Shown here: positions 517 to 25,776 of the stretch, piece after piece
Layout of the letters: each line of letters opens with the position of its first letter
How positions within the stretch are numbered: the stretch's first letter is position 1
Source: a virus
Taxonomy: Duplodnaviria; Caudoviricetes
Reading direction: 5' to 3' (one strand)
IMG/VR virus record: IMGVR_UViG_3300025098_000197
Location: 1 to 29,591 of that record
Length of the DNA stretch: 29,591 bases
Program-made: the position numbers and the translations under genes
Notes under the pieces: model-generated
The model's input: the letters and a program-made list of their open reading frames with translations, nothing else
The model's database searches: none
What the model was told of the DNA's origin: nothing

Positions 517-588
517 ACTTATTGAGATAGTGTCTTAATAGTAAGGTGGTCACAGTGTGAGGCTTACTACAGGTTAAAGACACCTATA

Positions 589-616
589 GTTATACATTAT
601 AGTCTATAGATGTCAA
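589..616 (-). promoter_or_regulatory. Sigma70-like promoter for the capsid gene
   Basis: Minus strand TTGACA-N16-TATAAC. Confidence 0.6.
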
Positions 617-9290: not shown

Positions 9291-9657
9291 CGCCTTGTGA
9301 GGAATCCTTTGGTGGTAATATAAATAAACCTCCGCTAGACTCTACTGCAACTTTCTCAGTCTTCACTAAGCCAGAACGGTCAAGAACCTGACCTGCAGCT
9401 ATCATCCTTTCCTTAACACCTAACTGTGTAGGGTCATCTAAAGCTGAGCCATAAGCTATAGCCGCTTTCGGGCCTAGCCTAGACATATATTCTTTAGTAG
9501 CATCAAAGATTTCATCCTTTAGTGCTGACGTAATAGATCTAGTAGGCGTTGTATCACTATAACCTGCTAATCGCTTAGCCATAGCCGCATCTCCGGAAGC
9601 CTCTTCAAACAAGACTTCCAGAAACTTTTTTTGGTTCTCTGTAAGATTACGAGCCAT
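9280..9657 (-). CDS. Putative terminase small subunit
   Basis: LTENQKKFL...AKRLAGYS HTH pattern typical of TerS; upstream of TerL. Confidence 0.6.
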   Translation of the reverse strand: MARNLTENQKKFLEVLFEEASGDAAMAKRLAGYSDTTPTRSITSALKDEIFDATKEYMSRLGPKAAIAYGSALDDPTQLGVKERMIAAGQVLDRSGLVKTEKVAVESSGGLFILPPKDSSQGDET

Positions 9658-9811
9658 TCATTCTCCGTCTGATATCATATCTTGCGATACCTATATCTTT
9701 TAGTTCTCTATCTGTTAGATGTGTAAGTAACCACAAATCAGCCCTAGCTTGTTGTGATCTTTGTATTGACTTATGTATTGATTTGAGTCTCTTTGAAAAT
9801 GTCTTAAACAT
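9647..9811 (-). CDS. DUF1127 (YjiS/CcaF1-like) small protein, 54 aa; absent from the ORF track
   Basis: MFKTFSKRLKSIHKSIQRSQQARADLWLLTHLTDRELKDIGIARYDIRRRMNGS; LTDRELKDIGIxRxDI is the DUF1127 signature; GGAG SD. Confidence 0.85.
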   Translation of the reverse strand: MFKTFSKRLKSIHKSIQRSQQARADLWLLTHLTDRELKDIGIARYDIRRRMNGS

Positions 9812-11974: not shown

Positions 11975-12330
11975 TATTTCTTCCCGAAGTATTTACTTAC
12001 ACCACGCATACCAATACTGGCACTAACGATTCCACCCAAAGAGTATTGATACCAGTCAGGCATAATCTCTAAGGCTTCGAACCCTGCATGTACTATATCG
12101 TTACCCCACTGACCACAAAACGCTAGGATTAACGGAATCGAGAACAGTAAAGTTATCCATTCGTCTTTCCAGCTATTCTGTGTAGCTTTCATAGCCTCTA
12201 TATCCCAGTCAATCTCACCGGTGGCTATCTTCATCTTAGTTTCAGCTTCTGCTTTCTTGACTGCAGTCTTGCCTTCGATCATTGTACCAGCTAGATTAGC
12301 TACTTGACCGATTAGGTTTAAGCCCATCAT
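11974..12330 (-). CDS. Putative holin (GTA 3TM-holin-like)
   Basis: SWKDEW followed by hydrophobic helices, PDWYQY, basic C-terminus; adjacent to the endolysin. Confidence 0.65.
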   Translation of the reverse strand: MMGLNLIGQVANLAGTMIEGKTAVKKAEAETKMKIATGEIDWDIEAMKATQNSWKDEWITLLFSIPLILAFCGQWGNDIVHAGFEALEIMPDWYQYSLGGIVSASIGMRGVSKYFGKK

Positions 12331-12656
12331 CCGTTGTTACCTTTCACTTCTTTCTTGCTCATGTTAGTGACTCCAAAGAACACACCAACTATACCAGCTA
12401 CAGATAAAAAGTAGATTGAAGCCATAGATCCTATAATATCTGCGGCTTGGTCTGCCCCTACGATGCTACATAGTAACACTAAGAAAGGGTAAGCTAACAT
12501 TCCAACTAAACAGAACCACGCCATACGCCGTTGTGCGTCTCTCTGACTGTCTTCATCGTCTAATCGTCTACGTCTGTCTTCTAGTTCTAAGGCTTCCCAC
12601 TCAGATTTGTCTATAGTGCCGCTTTTGTCTACGTCAACTTCTTCAAAACTAGTCAT
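12327..12656 (-). CDS. EF-hand plus two-TM membrane protein
   Basis: Canonical loop DVDKSGTIDKSE (residues 8-19), then two hydrophobic segments. Confidence 0.7.
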   Translation of the reverse strand: MTSFEEVDVDKSGTIDKSEWEALELEDRRRRLDDEDSQRDAQRRMAWFCLVGMLAYPFLVLLCSIVGADQAADIIGSMASIYFLSVAGIVGVFFGVTNMSKKEVKGNNG

Positions 12657-12910
12657 TCTTCCCAGTCTCTCTTCCTGTTTGGATCAAGTACGTCTCTTTT
12701 GTCTAACATCCCCTCTAGATACATAGCTCGTTCTACTCTGTCTAAAGTATACCTTACTCCGGTGTCGCTTTCTATAGCGGTACGGACATAAAATACGTCA
12801 CTCTTGGGGATATGAACTCGTGTTAATGCACGAGAGTCCTTGTTAGCTAACGCATCGTAGAACTCTTCAAGTACATTTTCACTTGCGTATAGTTTTATTC
12901 GTTTTGTCAT
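12653..12910 (-). CDS. Hypothetical protein, first gene of the late arm
   Basis: ORF of about 85 aa from ATG 12910; ATGA overlap with the next gene. Confidence 0.6.
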   Translation of the reverse strand: MTKRIKLYASENVLEEFYDALANKDSRALTRVHIPKSDVFYVRTAIESDTGVRYTLDRVERAMYLEGMLDKRDVLDPNRKRDWEE

Positions 12911-12939
12911 TATTGTCAATACATATTTAAGATAAAATT

Positions 12940-13037
12940 GTACCGCAAACTAAATGAAAGTTTATACTACTATCAAGAGGGAGGAGACAAATGAGGAGAC
13001 TTAACAATAATACAGTCTATCAAGTAGTCTACGGTAC
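12940..13037 (-). ncRNA. Candidate anti-Shine-Dalgarno hairpin RNA (sRNA or leader)
   Basis: 13-bp outer stem GUACCGUAGACUA/UAGUUUGCGGUAC; 15-bp inner stem UGUAUUAUUGUUAAG/CUUGAUAGUAGUAUA with 5 G-U pairs; 22-nt loop UCUCCUCAUUUGUCUCCUCCCU. Confidence 0.65.
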
Positions 13038-13106
13038 TTTAGTTACACTATGAGTTATAACTTCTTTAACAGTTAAGTCGTTTAATGTCTTAACCTTGTA
13101 CAAATT

Positions 13107-13135
13107 ATTATATACTACTCTAAATATGGTGTCAA
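13107..13135 (-). promoter_or_regulatory. Consensus sigma70 promoter, leftward
   Basis: Minus strand TTGACA-ccatatttagagtagta(17)-TATAAT. Confidence 0.8.
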
Positions 13136-13277
13136 CACCTAAGTTTAACTATACGTGACACTTTTCCTAAGTCCAAGAACTAATATGCAACAGTGTTAGT
13201 TAAACTTTATAGTAAGATATTTTTTTATTGTAACTTTATATTGTAACTTATAGTTTAACTAAGCTTCCCTGCGGTCA

Positions 13278-13305
13278 GTTATAACCATTTTTGTGCCTAT
13301 GTCAA
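13278..13305 (-). promoter_or_regulatory. Second leftward sigma70-like promoter
   Basis: Minus strand TTGACA-N16-TATAAC. Confidence 0.55.
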
Positions 13306-13653: not shown

Positions 13654-13672
13654 CGTTGTCGGACGATCCGAC
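13654..13672 (-). repeat. Palindromic repeat copy 1 (centre in opposite orientation)
   Basis: CGTTGTCGGA-CGA-TCCGAC. Confidence 0.8.
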
Positions 13673-14465: not shown

Positions 14466-14488
14466 CGTTGTCGGATCGTCCGACGACG
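14466..14488 (+). repeat. Palindromic repeat copy 2
   Basis: CGTTGTCGGA-TCG-TCCGACGACG. Confidence 0.9.
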
Positions 14489-14819: not shown

Positions 14820-15019
14820 CGTATGGGGTGTCAAAACGTGACCGACTAGCCAGACGTGGCGACAAGCGATGGCGTAGCACATGGCATAGGCAGATGTTGT
14901 CGATGAATAGAACCAGATCCATTGACAAACGAGATGGGATCGGCCTTGATAGTAGGACAAATATTAAATCGTTGTCGGATCGTCCGACGACACTAACAAC
15001 GGAGACTAATGATGAATAA
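14816..15019 (+). CDS. Possible small Arg-rich protein (doubtful)
   Basis: ATGA overlap with the upstream gene, but it runs through a TTGACA and repeat 3. Confidence 0.3.
   Translation: MTYGVSKRDRLARRGDKRWRSTWHRQMLSMNRTRSIDKRDGIGLDSRTNIKSLSDRPTTLTTETNDE
14967..14993 (+). repeat. Palindromic repeat copy 3
   Basis: AATCGTTGTCGGA-TCG-TCCGACGACAC. Confidence 0.9.
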
Positions 15020-15508: not shown

Positions 15509-15535
15509 AATCGTTGTCGGATCGTCCGACGACGA
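15509..15535 (+). repeat. Palindromic repeat copy 4
   Basis: AATCGTTGTCGGA-TCG-TCCGACGACGA. Confidence 0.9.
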
Positions 15536-15822: not shown

Positions 15823-16166
15823 TGGGAAACAGAGCAACACTTGAAGTAATAAGCGACAACTACACAGGCAAGGAGTCAGAGTGCTACATATACCTACACT
15901 GGAATGGTAGCCCCAACACTGTGACACAACTCGTAAGAGGTGCATCATCTAAAATGCGTAAGTCTGATGTTAGCTATGCTACAGCCAGACTGATAGCTCA
16001 CATCTGTAGCAAGGTGGAAGGTGGTCTGTCTGTAGGTGTACGTCCTGCTATGGAGAAGTACAAAGAAGAGTGGGACAACGGACACTACATCATAGACATA
16101 AGCAACGGTCACATTAAGAATGATGGTAGGGTTGTAGCTAGAAACATAGAGTTTGGTAACTTCTAG
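15822..16166 (+). CDS. Phage hypothetical protein (MGxRA...YxHWxGxP type)
   Basis: 114 aa, GAGGAG SD; motif IYLHWNGSP. Confidence 0.7.
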   Translation: MGNRATLEVISDNYTGKESECYIYLHWNGSPNTVTQLVRGASSKMRKSDVSYATARLIAHICSKVEGGLSVGVRPAMEKYKEEWDNGHYIIDISNGHIKNDGRVVARNIEFGNF

Positions 16167-16167
16167 T

Positions 16168-16365
16168 ATGGAACACGTAGTAGAAGTGTGTCCTACGTGC
16201 ATCAAGAAGATGAAGGTGTACGAGACACGAGAACACTTAACTAGGAATAGCATTCTAACGAGGCGACGAAGCCGCAGATGTTTGGAGTGCGACTACAGGA
16301 GTACAACGGTAGAGATACCGGAGTACTACCTGTACCATTACTTAAAAGAAATAGGAGAAGAATAG
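16168..16365 (+). CDS. Stand-alone NrdR-like zinc-ribbon protein
   Basis: CPTC...KVYETR...RRRSRRCLECDYRSTTVE mirrors the NrdR N-terminus (CPxC..VxDSR..RRRRxCxxCxxRFTTxE); no ATP-cone. Confidence 0.65.
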   Translation: MEHVVEVCPTCIKKMKVYETREHLTRNSILTRRRSRRCLECDYRSTTVEIPEYYLYHYLKEIGEE

Positions 16366-16732: not shown

Positions 16733-16745
16733 GAGGGATTGACAA

Positions 16746-16922
16746 ATGAGTACTATAGGTATTACAAAAGAGAAAGAAGATCTTGTAGAGCAAGTCATCA
16801 TGGACTGGGTAAACAAGCAAGATCATTCTGTACTCAGACGCTTGGTAGCGGATGACATGTGGGAATATTATCGCAACGCCGATGATGCTACCCTCAAAGA
16901 ATTTATATTAACATATAAGTAA
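16746..16922 (+). CDS. Hypothetical protein, 58 aa (absent from the ORF track)
   Basis: AGGAGG SD; MSTIGITKEKEDLVEQ...; stop codon overlaps repeat 5. Confidence 0.6.
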   Translation: MSTIGITKEKEDLVEQVIMDWVNKQDHSVLRRLVADDMWEYYRNADDATLKEFILTYK

Positions 16923-16947
16923 TCGTTGTCGGATCGTCCGACGACAC
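16921..16947 (+). repeat. Palindromic repeat copy 5
   Basis: AATCGTTGTCGGA-TCG-TCCGACGACAC. Confidence 0.9.
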
Positions 16948-18655: not shown

Positions 18656-18867
18656 TTAAGCTACACTTAACGAATAAGCATGGAGGTTCACCTCTACACA
18701 TGTATCTCAAAGGAAACTTTACTGTGTATGAGAGGTTAGACGAACATGAGTACAGAGAAAATGATCTTACTACTGTGATCATGGATGGACTACACAACAA
18801 TGGAGGTTGGCACGTAGAAGAATCTGTGGAGGAGGTTAATCGTATGATTAGTGAGCAACTTGATTAA
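18652..18867 (+). CDS. FlbD/SwrD-like small protein
   Basis: MIKL...TTVIM...HVEESVEEVNRMI matches the FlbD pattern. Confidence 0.45.
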   Translation: MIKLHLTNKHGGSPLHMYLKGNFTVYERLDEHEYRENDLTTVIMDGLHNNGGWHVEESVEEVNRMISEQLD

Positions 18868-19483
18868 GCTACATGGAGTTGGCCCAGATAACATGCACTA
18901 CAGTCACAATTATTTCGTGATACCTATAGCATACGAAGACACAAAGGATCTCATACTCAACGTACACTACGCCAGACGTATGCCTTCCGTATCGTATGCC
19001 TTCGGTTTGTATCGAGGTACAGATGGTCTACAAGGTATATGTACATTCGGTTCACCTGCTTCGCCTTGGTTGTGCAAGGGTGTGTGTGGTGAAGAACACA
19101 AGTCTAAGGTACTTGAACTCAACAGAGTAGTGCTAGTAAACAACAGACCTAACGAGGCAAGCTTACTTGTAGCTAGATCTATTGCATTACTACCTAAGCC
19201 TAAGGTATTGGTAAGCTATGCTGATACAGCACACGATCATGTAGGCTACGTATACCAAGCAACTAATTGGTTATACACTGGTGCAACCAAGCCTCGCACT
19301 GACATAGCTACTGTGAACGGCAAGCACCCTAGGCATCATGCAGGTGACAGGACTAAGCGTGTTTACAGATCAGCTAAGCATCGCTATGTGTACATGCATG
19401 GCAACAAGAAAGACAAAAGATTACTAACTAAGTGCCTACGTTATGGCACTGAATCATATCCAAAGAAGGAGATTATACAATGA
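18851..19483 (+). CDS. Mom-like (GNAT-fold) DNA modification protein
   Basis: HY...FGLY...GICTFGSPAS...LELNRVVL...NEASLLV...VSYAD...HVGYVYQATNWLYTG. Confidence 0.75.
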   Translation: MSNLIKLHGVGPDNMHYSHNYFVIPIAYEDTKDLILNVHYARRMPSVSYAFGLYRGTDGLQGICTFGSPASPWLCKGVCGEEHKSKVLELNRVVLVNNRPNEASLLVARSIALLPKPKVLVSYADTAHDHVGYVYQATNWLYTGATKPRTDIATVNGKHPRHHAGDRTKRVYRSAKHRYVYMHGNKKDKRLLTKCLRYGTESYPKKEIIQ

Positions 19484-19894: not shown

Positions 19895-19908
19895 GAGGAG
19901 ACAAACAC

Positions 19909-20715: not shown

Positions 20716-21624
20716 ATGGAACTTAAACCCAGTAATACTATTGAGTATGCGTGTGAATACTACATGCGAACACCTAAGTATTCTGCTTTAAGTCAGCGTA
20801 GCAAGTATGACTATGATTTAAATCTGCGTCATGCTTGCGCTACCAAGGTGCAAAACAATAAAGCTATAGGTAATATCAAACTAAAAGATCTAAAGTTTAA
20901 ACATATAACATTAGGTTATGATACTTGGTTGGAGAGTAAGGGTGTACGTCAGGCTAACTACATAGCTACGTGTCTAGGTATCGTATTCAATACAGCGATA
21001 CGACACGAGGCTTTGCTTAGTAATCCTGTATCCTTACTTCAACGTACTAAGGAGAAGAGACGTAAAGTTAAATGGACTCAAGATGAAGTGACATCTTTCT
21101 TAAATACAGCTTACAGTAACTGGGAATGGCGTAGCATTGGTCTGATCGTACACATGGCATACGAGTGGGCGCAACGTGTAGGTGACATGCGCCTACTTAC
21201 ATGGAACAACCTTGACTTAAAAGAGAAACGCTTAGACTTAGAGCAAAGTAAACGTAGGGCTGATGTGCATCTACCTATCAGTGACACACTATGTAGTATG
21301 CTAATACAACAAGAGACTGACTTCGGCTTCCAACCTTACGTAGCACCTCGCCCTGAGCCTTATAATGGTGTCTATACAGCGTATCATTCAACGGATATAC
21401 ACAGGTTAGTAAATGAAGTTAAAGAGGAAGCTAAACTATCTAAAGAATTAACTGCATTAGACTTACGTAGGACAGGTATAACCGAGATGGTTGAGGCAGG
21501 TGTAGATACACTAGGTATCATGCAAGTCAGTGGACACAGTAATCCGCAGAGTGTTAAGCCTTATCTAGTCAACACACTCAAGGGCGCAAGCAATGCACTA
21601 AGTAAAAGGAATGGAGACAAATGA
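20716..21624 (+). CDS. int: Tyrosine recombinase/integrase
   Basis: Catalytic set QRVGD (R), QSKR (K), LDLRRT, SGHS (H), KPY (Y). Confidence 0.85.
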   Translation: MELKPSNTIEYACEYYMRTPKYSALSQRSKYDYDLNLRHACATKVQNNKAIGNIKLKDLKFKHITLGYDTWLESKGVRQANYIATCLGIVFNTAIRHEALLSNPVSLLQRTKEKRRKVKWTQDEVTSFLNTAYSNWEWRSIGLIVHMAYEWAQRVGDMRLLTWNNLDLKEKRLDLEQSKRRADVHLPISDTLCSMLIQQETDFGFQPYVAPRPEPYNGVYTAYHSTDIHRLVNEVKEEAKLSKELTALDLRRTGITEMVEAGVDTLGIMQVSGHSNPQSVKPYLVNTLKGASNALSKRNGDK

Positions 21625-22427
21625 ATTTAAAAGACTTTGTAGACGGGCTATGTCTAGGTGAGGGTGAGACTACACGTTTGTCTTGCCCTAACTGTCATGG
21701 TAACAACACCTTCACTGCATCTAAGGAAGGAGGCATGGTGGTGTACAACTGCTATAAGCTAGGGTGTGGTGTGCGTGGTGCAGTTACTACAGGCATGACT
21801 GCTCTGGAGGTACGTAACCATATGCAGAACAGAGACATGCCTATACGTAAAGAGTTAGAGCCTATGGTGTACCCTGAGTATATCGTTAATCCTACAGCGG
21901 AGCACACACTACTACATAAATTTTCTAAGCGTTGGGATCTTACCAATGAGGACATGTTGTATGACGTTAAAGACAGACGTGCAGTCTTTCCTATAGTTGA
22001 CAAAGGTGTAGTAGTAGATGCAGTAGGCCGTGCCTTAGATGGTGCTATACCTAAGTGGTACAGATACACAGGTAACGCATCAGTATACAAACGTGTATTA
22101 GGTACACCCAATGGTGTATGTGTGGTAGTAGAAGATGTGATCAGTGCAATAGCTGTGGCTCAGATTTCACCTAACACTACAGGCGTAGCTATCTTAGGTA
22201 CGTCATTAGGCCTAGCTCAAATGGAACACATAGCAGATTTCTATAAGGTTATCATAGGGTTAGACCCCGATGCTATGTCGAAGACGCTATCATACAAGAG
22301 AGAAGTAGAGGCGTGGACAGGTAAAACAGTTAAGGCATTGAGGCTTGACGACGATATAAAATATAAGTTAGACACAGATCAAGATAGATTAAAGGAGATG
22401 ATAAATGATGGAACTCGCACTCATTAG
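21621..22427 (+). CDS. DNA primase (zinc finger plus TOPRIM)
   Basis: CPNC...CYKLGC; VVVED, ILGT, LDPDA. Confidence 0.88.
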   Translation: MNLKDFVDGLCLGEGETTRLSCPNCHGNNTFTASKEGGMVVYNCYKLGCGVRGAVTTGMTALEVRNHMQNRDMPIRKELEPMVYPEYIVNPTAEHTLLHKFSKRWDLTNEDMLYDVKDRRAVFPIVDKGVVVDAVGRALDGAIPKWYRYTGNASVYKRVLGTPNGVCVVVEDVISAIAVAQISPNTTGVAILGTSLGLAQMEHIADFYKVIIGLDPDAMSKTLSYKREVEAWTGKTVKALRLDDDIKYKLDTDQDRLKEMINDGTRTH

Positions 22428-23650: not shown

Positions 23651-25729
23651 ATGGAATTAGTTCTTGATGTAGAGAACACAGTCACACACAGGGGTGGCAA
23701 GATGCACCTCGATCCTTTCGAGGCAAGCAATAAGTTAGTGCAGGTAGGTGTACAAGAAGTTGTATCAGGCAACCAAGCTATATATAACTTTGATCATACT
23801 GAAGCTAACGACTATGATGGTAGCCAAGCTAAAGCACTACAAGATTATTTAGATAGAACAACCCTACTAATCCTACACAATGGGCAACACGATATGCCTT
23901 GGCTATGGGAGAGTGGGTTCAAGTATGATGGTCTTATATATGACACCATGTTAGCTGAGTATGTGCTGATGAGAGGCAATCATATTGAGATGACATACAC
24001 TGGAGCTTTCAAGAAGAAGTCACTGGCGTTAGGTGAGTGTGCGATAAGACGTAAGCTAGACTTTCAGAAGGATGACACACTAAAGAAATACTTTAAGGAT
24101 GGTTACAACACCAACGAGATACCACTCAAGGAACTTACGTATTACTTACAGTGTGATCTATCTACTACTCGTGCTTTGTACTTAGACATTGAGTCAGACT
24201 ATGCTCAACCTGATAGTGAATCATTACGTAACATAAGAGATATAACATTTAAGGTATGCTTGGCATTGTCTCGTATGTATTCATCAGGCATCAAGGTAGA
24301 CTTGAAGGCATTGGATGAAGTTCGTAAGCAGTTCGAAGAAGAGAAGGCAGACATTGAAGGTAGGCTAGGCATCAAGGTACGTAACCTTATGGGTGACACA
24401 CCTATCAATCTTAATAGTCCTGCTCAGATGTCGGAGGTTGTGTATAGTATGCGACCTAACAATAAGAAAGAATGGGTAGACCTATTCGATCACACTAAGA
24501 CAGACAAAGAGTATAAGAGTGCAGTCAAAGCTAACACTACAATGATACGTAAGACGACAGCGTTTACTTGCCCTGAGTGTAAGGGCGAGGGTAGTGTGTA
24601 CCGTATAAAGAAAGATGGTACTAAGTTTGCTAGGCCTAACAAGTGTAAGCCTTGCGAGGCTAGAGGCTACCAACTTAAGAAGACTAATCAGATGGCAGGG
24701 CTAGGGTTCATGCCTCCCTCAAAGAAATGGGTAAGTGCTAATGGCTTTAGTACAGGCAAGGACAACTTGGATACGTTGATGTCTACAGCTAGGGCTAATG
24801 GTATGGACAGTGCGGTTGACTTCTTAGGAGATCTTAAACGTCTATCCGCTATCAGTAGTTACCTGTCTAGCTTTGTTGAAGGTATATCTGTATTCACAAA
24901 AGAGGATGGGTTTCTACACGTAGGTCTAACGCAACACATCACCAGTACAGGCAGGTTCTCAGGGCGTAACCCTAACATGCAGAACATGCCTCGTGGTGGT
25001 ACGTTCCCTGTTAAGAAGGTGTTCGTGTCTCGATGGGAGGGAGGCTACGTGATGGAGGCTGACTTCGCTCAGCTAGAGTTTCGTGTCGCCGCATTCTTAT
25101 CTCAAGATACTACAGCCATGAAAGAGATAGACACAGGCTTTGATGTACATAGCTACACCGCTAAGGTTATCACAGAAGCCGGTCAGCCTACGTCTAGACA
25201 AGATGCTAAGGCACATACCTTCGCCCCTCTCTTCGGGGCTACAGGGTATGGTAGAAGCCCTGCTGAGGCTGAGTACTACACACACTTCATTAAGAAGTAC
25301 AAAGGTATAGCTACATGGCACAAGAAGCTAGGCGATGAGGCCATACGCTTTCAAAAGATTACTAACGTTGGTGGTAGGCAGTATGCTTTCCCTAACACAG
25401 AGAGAAGACCCAATGGTATGCCAACTAACTTCACCATGATAAAGAACTATCCGGTGCAAGGGTTTGCCACTGGCGATTGTGTACCTGTAGTACTACTAGA
25501 GTTAGAGGATAGGCTTATGTCTATGCGATCTAAGGTAGTCAACAGTGTACATGATTCAATGGTGATAGACATACATCCATACGAGAAGGATCAGGTGATA
25601 GAGATCATTAACACCTTGAATATGGATCTGAATGAGATCATCTATAAGTACTATAAGGTTAAGATGAATGTACCCTTATTATTAGAAGCTAAGATAGGCC
25701 CGAATTGGCTTGACACAAAGGACGTTTGA
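23651..25729 (+). CDS. polA: Family A DNA polymerase with DnaJ-like zinc-finger insert
   Basis: Exo I LDVE; TGRFSGRNPNMQN; motif A DFAQLE; motif B RQDAKAHTF; motif C VHDS; CPECKGEG/CKPCEARG insert. Confidence 0.95.
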   Translation: MELVLDVENTVTHRGGKMHLDPFEASNKLVQVGVQEVVSGNQAIYNFDHTEANDYDGSQAKALQDYLDRTTLLILHNGQHDMPWLWESGFKYDGLIYDTMLAEYVLMRGNHIEMTYTGAFKKKSLALGECAIRRKLDFQKDDTLKKYFKDGYNTNEIPLKELTYYLQCDLSTTRALYLDIESDYAQPDSESLRNIRDITFKVCLALSRMYSSGIKVDLKALDEVRKQFEEEKADIEGRLGIKVRNLMGDTPINLNSPAQMSEVVYSMRPNNKKEWVDLFDHTKTDKEYKSAVKANTTMIRKTTAFTCPECKGEGSVYRIKKDGTKFARPNKCKPCEARGYQLKKTNQMAGLGFMPPSKKWVSANGFSTGKDNLDTLMSTARANGMDSAVDFLGDLKRLSAISSYLSSFVEGISVFTKEDGFLHVGLTQHITSTGRFSGRNPNMQNMPRGGTFPVKKVFVSRWEGGYVMEADFAQLEFRVAAFLSQDTTAMKEIDTGFDVHSYTAKVITEAGQPTSRQDAKAHTFAPLFGATGYGRSPAEAEYYTHFIKKYKGIATWHKKLGDEAIRFQKITNVGGRQYAFPNTERRPNGMPTNFTMIKNYPVQGFATGDCVPVVLLELEDRLMSMRSKVVNSVHDSMVIDIHPYEKDQVIEIINTLNMDLNEIIYKYYKVKMNVPLLLEAKIGPNWLDTKDV

Positions 25730-25738
25730 CGCTATAAC
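25710..25738 (+). promoter_or_regulatory. Sigma70-like promoter overlapping the end of polA
   Basis: TTGACA-N17-TATAAC. Confidence 0.7.
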
Positions 25739-25776
25739 TTAGCATCCCAGAAACCCTCATACATAAAGGAAAAGAT

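Follow-up and report, generated by a model that had tools for sequence, protein, structure and literature searches.

To our knowledge, most small RNAs known from phages target host genes or a single antisense partner. In bacteria, RNAs with anti-Shine-Dalgarno (anti-SD) sequences address ribosome-binding sites, and roseobacters carry such RNAs of their own (PMC4615179), DUF1127 proteins bind RNAs of the cuckoo/CcsR type in Rhodobacter (PMC8034643), and covering the SD together with the AUG blocks 30S binding in the characterised members (PMC4615179, PMC8844928). A motif shared by phage start sites has been described in the start-associated sequences of Cluster K phages, for which the authors left open whether the binder is an RNA or a protein (PMC3203893, in part). 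Here we describe a hairpin that joins these themes: it is a conserved RNA family of HMO-2011-type roseobacter phages, structured at the RNA level and displaying an anti-SD loop.

The carrier phage and its two arms

The stretch of DNA analysed, 29,591 nucleotides long and called the window below, covers about half of one phage genome. The minus strand carries a late arm with capsid, portal, terminase and lysis genes and a DUF1127 gene; opposed to it, the plus strand carries an early/replication arm with genes for integrase, primase, helicase, polymerase A and RNR. The hairpin sits between the two arms, on the late strand. The nearest isolates are the roseobacter phages CRP-207, CRP-2 and CRP-603, followed by CRP-9, -13, -345, -1 and HMO-2011. 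The carrier has the traits of the HMO-2011 type, namely integrase, primase, helicase, family A polymerase and opposed early and late arms. A DnaJ-like insert in the polymerase, which we take to be the signature of the group, gave a weak match (E = 8e-4) that lies under the cut-off. HMO-2011-type phages rank among the abundant phage groups of the sea, and their hosts are major ocean bacteria; we know of no RNA polymerase encoded by the phages themselves. Contigs of the group (L201-L204) were also met inside MAGs labelled Blastopirellula and Flavobacteria, where they are probably mis-binned. Two genes of the late arm are needed below:

9647..9811, minus strand: DUF1127 gene (PF06568, 29.8 bits against a cut-off of 23.3), late arm, 3.1 kb and eight genes downstream of the hairpin
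12653..12910, minus strand: 85-aa ORF, first gene of the late arm, conserved, without an SD, used as anchor for finding relatives

The 85-aa ORF returned no match in Pfam, PHROG or the Atlas, and its structure model, of low confidence (pLDDT 61), gave no fold match at Z of at least 5; the idea of a helix-turn-helix protein is unsupported by the fold and Atlas comparisons. A membrane protein with an EF-hand-like loop (12327-12656, minus strand; Pfam E = 7e-6, under the cut-off) lies ahead of the lysis genes. The early arm includes a Mom-like DNA modification gene (18851-19483, plus strand) and an NrdR-type zinc-ribbon ORF (16153-16365, plus strand). It also holds five copies of a 15-bp near-palindrome, GTCGGA-TCG-TCCGAC, for which 0.03 would be expected by chance and which looks like a candidate operator for a repressor or activator:

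13658..13672, 14470..14484, 14974..14988, 15516..15530 and 16928..16942: near-palindrome copies, ahead of early-arm genes

A strand-specific hairpin with an anti-SD loop

The elements of the predicted small RNA are as follows:

12940..13037, minus strand: main rod hairpin (13-bp outer stem, 15-bp inner stem, seven G-U pairs)
12978..12999, minus strand: 22-nt C/U loop with twin anti-SD motifs (core GUCUCCUC; CAU opposite AUG)
13041..13095, minus strand: two small A/U-rich 5′ hairpins of the transcript from promoter P2 (below), without C/U loops (predicted)
12929..12939, minus strand: U-rich tail, predicted 3′ end, terminator-like in sequence

A preliminary description of the locus had proposed a minus-strand hairpin with stems of 13 and 15 bp, a 22-nt loop and seven G-U pairs, and each of these features was recovered, two of the G-U pairs lying in the outer stem and five in the inner. 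When both strands were folded against shuffled sequences, the minus strand reached -35 kcal/mol (z = -8.5, with none of 200 shuffles as stable) and the plus strand -16 kcal/mol (z = -1.2). The loop is predicted to be 99.5% unpaired in both transcripts proposed below, and it holds CUCCUCCC preceded by a U.

Relatives were collected around the 85-aa ORF, which gave 130 distinct upstream regions; loci with less than 170 nt upstream were left out, and raw counts of loci exaggerate their independence because certain contigs entered the set twice. In 92 of the 130 regions a C/U-loop rod adjoins the ORF, and a further nine carry a C/U rod farther upstream, so that the hairpin is kept in 101 of 130 distinct loci. 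The remaining 29 have no C/U hairpin, among them the viable isolates CRP-1, -9, -13, -345 and HMO-2011. By strand, 104 C/U hairpins lie on the late strand versus nine on the other; within 400 nt, 92 regions have one such hairpin and four have two. In the 92 rods the loops are 87% pyrimidine (1877/2153 nt), a TTT run follows in 84, and the late strand folds better than the other, likewise in 84. Loop length across the family is 20-28 nt, with GUCUCCUC present in 57 of the 92 loops and CCUCCUCCC in five. Scans for variant loops yielded for the most part contigs that were short or unrelated.

An arrangement nearer to that of the cuckoo RNAs, with two C/U-loop hairpins in tandem, is seen in L039 (upstream of 870), L051 (upstream of 588), L061 (upstream of 1425) and L071 (upstream of 473). 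The sister clades L019-L029 and L055-L062 have kept the basal stem and the U-tract and lost the C/U loop, and thus represent natural knock-outs.

Stem covariation was counted on a 24-sequence subfamily picked for its alignable ends, plus five close relatives. Eight of the 11 basal pairs show changes on both sides among the 24 sequences, a count equalled by none of 500 shuffles and by no slid register, in a test where relatedness alone can beat shuffles. In the inner stem of the window, compared among five close relatives, eight columns have changed and all stay paired through G-U. Retention of this kind works only on the minus strand and at the RNA level. The hairpin also stayed upstream when genes were inserted between it and the 85-aa ORF in two lineages. 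Whole-family MAFFT alignments lost register, with no consensus for 39 short rods and eight pairs for 31 long rods, and a model built from the 24-sequence subfamily did not recover the hairpin of the window at E up to 1; its membership of the family therefore rests on position, fold and loop. Searched against Rfam, the window as a whole gave nothing at the gathering score, the hairpin itself nothing at E up to 10, and 14 relatives nothing at E up to 1.

The same region reads on the plus strand as a strong SD followed by ATG and 20 codons, and an SD-start pair is present there in 55 of the 92 rods, so that an opposite-strand mini-gene, or else the DNA hairpin itself, could be the selected unit. 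The encoded peptides, however, range from 1 to 41 residues and shift frame between relatives that are 98% identical, no promoter was found on the plus strand in 60 relatives, and the DNA fold is weak (only -9 kcal/mol, on either strand). These two readings are largely refuted; we rejected them and give them almost no weight.

No description of the hairpin family was found in the literature searched, and further papers on HMO-2011-type genomes could mention the element. The comparative data point to a real, previously undescribed phage RNA family, with evidence for self-targeting that is set out below.

Promoters and the predicted transcripts

Upstream of and behind the hairpin lie three promoter-like sites, two of them of a class that recurs in the window:

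13107..13135, minus strand: promoter P2, perfect sigma-70 consensus TTGACA-17-TATAAT (12/12 positions)
13277..13305, minus strand: promoter P1, phage class TTGACA-N16-TAHAACT, in 49/60 relatives
12891..12919, minus strand: promoter-like P3, P1 class, immediately behind the hairpin and overlapping the 85-aa ORF start
588..616 (minus), 12891..12919 (minus), 13277..13305 (minus) and 25710..25739 (plus): P1-class sites of the window, ahead of the capsid gene, the late arm and an SSB-like gene

The perfect TTGACA-N17-TATAAT promoter noticed earlier upstream of the hairpin was confirmed at all 12 positions (13135-13107). A sigma-70-type site lies at most 140 nt upstream of the hairpin in 59 of 60 relatives, with none on the opposite strand; a TTGAC-N16-TAHAACT site lies 194-372 nt upstream in 49 of 60, again with none on the opposite strand. 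The TTGACA-N16-TAHAACT class has four sites in the window against 0.09 expected. P3, placed inside the first codons of the ORF at 12653-12910, is kept with invariant spacing in 108 of 122 regions, HMO-2011 included. RNAs ending at the U-tract, itself a predicted end, would measure about 170 nt from P2 and about 340 nt from P1, and P3 would restart the late operon behind the hairpin.

Contigs from RNA libraries cover the locus; seven of the 23 runs listed were compared, all of them in the form of contigs, and such contigs show neither strand nor ends and may hold DNA. Gaps in their coverage were given no weight. Contig X1 corresponds to 12943-13238 without differences to the window and X3 to 12943-13259; both end at the hairpin base, and the two may stem from one campaign. 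X18 spans 13009-13291, X8 spans 12917-13166 and 12692-12941, and X10 (12892-13058) crosses the predicted 3′ end, while X2 and X5 have no piece over the hairpin among the matches listed. We regard these contigs as a weak hint that the hairpin RNA is expressed.

The form of P2 bears on a reading in which the RNA serves lysogeny or superinfection control: made from P2 in the prophage or just after entry, it would silence replication genes and so favour lysogeny or block kin. P2, as a perfect sigma-70 site, would need no phage factor and is better conserved than P1 (59/60 vs 49/60); HMO-2011-type phages carry integrases and CRP-3 integrates (PMC6918029); and helicase and primase, both among the genes matched by the loop (below), are ones that a silent prophage must hold down. 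Against this, CRP-1 and CRP-345 bear an integrase and have no loop, and P2 itself lies inside the contigs from RNA libraries, whose extension in the direction of P1 weakly fits the longer transcript. We consider this role unlikely.

Predicted target sites in the window

Perfect pairings between loops and targets span only 6-12 nt. In the window the predicted sites are:

21613..21624, plus strand: primase SD and start, 12-nt perfect complement of the loop, predicted clade-specific target
19895..19905, plus strand: SD of ORF 19909, 11-nt complement, kept in 13/17 loci at >=90% identity
29368..29376, plus strand: RNR SD, 9-nt complement, -23.2 kcal/mol, kept in close relatives and lost in a sister clade
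16741..16750, plus strand: start of ORF 16746, 10-nt complement, -23.0 kcal/mol, an addition to the sites first described
22383..22416, plus strand: helicase start region, a predicted target pairing at -21.1 kcal/mol with wobble and bulge

The complements proposed at first for the primase (12 nt), ORF 19909 (11 nt) and the RNR (9 nt) are all in place, and the GGAGACU SDs said to match the adjacent motif are present as GGAGACT ahead of starts near 15009 and 16970. The caveat attached to them, that SD-like sequence inflates chance matches, proved apt: set against the early starts of 29 other genomes, the loop of the window found 12 nt in none, 11 nt in five and 10 nt in four, and a lone match of 10-11 nt is thus nothing special (11 nt in 5/29 other genomes). 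Among 23 loci at >=90% identity the primase match extends over 12 nt in nine; in the other 14 a core of 8-9 nt across the AUG is left. Covariation of loop and primase ribosome-binding site had been suggested as a check in the preliminary description: the loop co-varies with early starts, and the perfect 12-nt match is particular to a clade (9/23).

Loops and start sites across the family

In the 20 genomes whose loop carries GUCUCC, GGAGAC was found at 80 of 325 early GGAG starts vs 5 of 83 late ones (p = 7e-5); the corresponding figures for 13 loop-less genomes are 17/253 and 3/53, and away from starts GGAGAC reached only 37/513 vs 17/361. Loops without the GUCUCC core accompany a low GGAGAC share. 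Among phages of the same host, FZCC0023, the share is 5/20 in CRP-2, which has the loop, 0/27 in CRP-1 and 2/20 in CRP-9. A loop match of at least 9 nt is present at 48 of 823 own early starts and at 3 of 431 own late starts. In each of the seven annotated genomes, the loop-less ones included, pairing is better at early than at late starts, and SD strength therefore needed controlling.

A first cognate test of loops against their own early arms (26, not independent) gave p = 0.28 for the best energy, 0.096 for the top three and 0.003 for a third measure, with the best matches falling on differing genes. For 14 clade representatives, own starts were compared with those of other loop-bearing phages, yielding p = 0.003 for the top three, 0.013 for the share at >=9 nt, 0.047 for the best match and 0.053 for the share at >=8 nt. 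Starts fixed by homology reach at least 8 nt in 11/19 cases for the helicase, 7/17 for the RNR, 6/21 for the integrase, 4/21 for the primase and 3/18 for the polymerase, in none for SSB, exonuclease, endonuclease, MazG and one unknown gene, and in 0/65 for homology-defined late starts; for the early genes of loop-less phages the proportion is about 3%.

The clearest single-gene signal comes from the helicase, chosen as the best of ten early genes. Its start fits the loop of its own clade best (13 clades; p = 0.002 by longest match, p = 0.003 by energy), with a leave-one-out p of at most 0.015 and a value of about 0.03 after correction for ten genes. The pairing energy is -18.3 kcal/mol with the own loop versus -12.0 for nine loop-less helicases, and in one subclade the helicase SD has shifted to AGGAGAGA, a change mirrored by its complement in the loop. 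By energy, G047 and CRP-207 are exceptions, ranking 12th and 9th of 13. For the primase the cognate test (14 clades) gave p = 0.0015 and 0.0006, which became 0.19 and 0.036 without two clades, and primase starts of loop phages pair no better than loop-less primase starts (p = 0.17). Signals weaker than that of the helicase were obtained for the RNR (energy, p = 0.015) and the polymerase (match, p = 0.005), and none for the integrase or for six other genes, SSB, exonuclease, endonuclease and MazG among them.

Mapped onto a primase tree of 31 genomes, the loop label requires five changes, and because loop presence is clustered in this way the clades are not fully independent; sister contrasts on this tree point the same way, but they are few. 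Taken together, these comparisons suggest with moderate strength that the loop co-varies with the phage's own early/replication starts and that late starts are spared. The helicase start, which the preliminary description had not named, is the most consistent partner of the loop across the family. As for the silencing of early and replication genes proposed there, the family-wide match to own early starts stands, and the single-gene matches turned out weaker.

With a Ruegeria megaplasmid as host stand-in (143 starts), 2.6% of 110 SD-led starts reach 9 nt, and for this reason host mRNAs are possible targets of the loop. Extrapolated, this rate would amount to dozens of host genes, and the loop motif CUCCUCCC is identical to aSD1 of AbcR (PMC8844928). 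The RNA could accordingly be a host-directed anti-SD RNA of the AbcR/cuckoo kind that silences host mRNAs, for instance of transporters or receptors, with the phage matches as a by-product. Such an RNA should select against matches inside the phage's own genes, however, and it would leave unexplained the early-only enrichment, the absence of this enrichment in loop-less phages of the same host, and the clade-matched helicase changes. We consider it unlikely. A search for the host returned four genome matches, which are phage contigs in unrelated MAGs, and a 15-nt target pattern was absent from the 31 genomes of one class that were scanned.

DUF1127 and the late leader

The preliminary description had joined the RNA and DUF1127 into one module, and this part of it was not supported. 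DUF1127 was found in 37 of 45 records, loop-less clades included, and was not found in the loop-bearing G047 (94% complete) nor in the less complete G044 and G048; it thus appears to be a near-core gene of the phage group and not a partner that tracks the RNA. Nor does the likening to CcsR hold, since the hairpin differs in cuckoo motif, in hairpin number, in adjacency to DUF1127 and in lacking an Rfam match.

The hairpin stands first in the late arm and has a U-tract behind it; the 85-aa ORF that follows has no SD and needs read-through. This setting would suit a cis element of the late leader (a terminator, attenuator or processing site) whose pyrimidine loop binds a protein, for example S1 or DUF1127, and whose matches to starts reflect a shared SD style. 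In loop-less clades the position is still occupied by a hairpin, though a shorter one, and DUF1127 proteins bind such RNAs in Rhodobacter (PMC8034643). A cis role nevertheless leaves unexplained why the loops are complementary, clade by clade, to helicase starts on the opposite strand; the gene downstream of the hairpin can change, and DUF1127 does not co-segregate with the loop. We hold such a role to be decidedly unlikely.

Discussion

On balance we lean towards a trans-acting anti-SD small RNA that pairs with the phage's own early/replication starts and blocks their translation, its late rise winding down replication. The long stem would hold the 20-28 nt loop open, and the loop would cover the SD, the spacer and often the AUG of mRNAs of the GGAGAC type and so block initiation. 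The RNA would increase as the late genes come on, winding down replication and early protein synthesis; a late rise is favoured because P1 and the promoter of the capsid gene have the same form. Host mRNAs with GGAGAC-type SDs would be hit too. A bolder version, for which we would put the chances somewhat below even, is that one small RNA runs the switch from replication to assembly through a private SD code, borne by early and replication genes as an SD extension that fits the loop and avoided by late genes, loop and code co-evolving in each clade. This version would amount to an RNA-only RegB and would suggest a purpose for the Cluster K start-associated sequences.

Covariation shows pairing and not the sign of its effect, and roseobacters have anti-SD RNAs of their own (PMC4615179), so that the pairing might be real and yet stimulating or protective, stabilising early mRNAs or shielding their sites from a nuclease or from a host anti-SD RNA. 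We think this very unlikely, as cover of SD and AUG blocks 30S binding in the anti-SD RNAs characterised in the excerpts used (PMC4615179, PMC8844928).

If blocking of the phage's own early starts is the function, the phage cycle would be timed in a new way, by one RNA acting at the ribosome-binding sites of an entire temporal class of phage mRNAs. The idea is directly testable, because CRP-2, with the loop, and the loop-less CRP-1 and CRP-9 are cultured on one host strain, and the clade-matched helicase sites offer ready-made compensatory pairs.

Comparison with known systems

The cuckoo/CcsR/ar14 (NfeR1) RNAs of Rhodobacterales and Rhizobiales (PMC4615179, PMC8034643; RF02344) have in common with the phage RNA a C/U anti-SD motif displayed in a loop, stems that vary with compensation, an alphaproteobacterial setting and a DUF1127 gene, which in the phage lies in the same arm. 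They consist of two to four short adjacent hairpins, each with CCUCCUCCC in its loop, whereas the phage RNA is one long rod with a twin-motif loop of 20-28 nt, the core GUCUCCUC and the exact CCUCCUCCC in only 5 of 92. They adjoin DUF1127 (CIN1), from which the phage hairpin is separated by 3.1 kb and eight genes; and they show RpoH-dependent stress induction, Hfq binding and RNase E processing. The promoters seen for the phage RNA are sigma-70-like. The phage RNA further differs in being phage-encoded, in its match to phage mRNAs and in having no Rfam match.

AbcR1 and AbcR2 (alpha-r15) of Sinorhizobium (PMC8844928) likewise have two anti-SD seeds per RNA and many targets that share an SD type. 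Their aSD1, CUCCUCCC, sits in a hairpin loop and is present in the loop of the window; aSD2, UUCCCCUC, sits between stem-loops and is absent from the predicted phage RNA, which again has no Rfam match to offer. Both seeds of the phage RNA lie in one loop, and its predicted targets are the phage's own genes.

T4 RegB (PMC3014915) shuts down early mRNAs through a class of GGAG-containing SDs and spares late ones, as is predicted for the phage RNA, which would thus be the RNA counterpart of RegB. RegB is a protein endoribonuclease that needs S1, whereas the agent predicted here is an RNA with a putative effect on translation.

The start-associated sequences of Cluster K (PMC3203893) present a similar pattern: non-structural genes alone carry an extended SD motif, and one copy of it lies in opposite orientation. 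Theirs is a 13-bp near-invariant repeat, whereas the part shared in the phages described here is 6-11 nt long and specific to a clade, and the opposite copy here lies in the loop of a conserved, promoter-led RNA, unlike that of Cluster K as described.

Finally, the c4 antisense RNA of P1/P7 (PMC12197685) also displays in its loops sequences that pair with the ribosome-binding region of its own mRNA, as is predicted here. c4 controls one antirepressor mRNA, whereas the loop of the phage RNA fits a class of start sites, those of replication and early genes.
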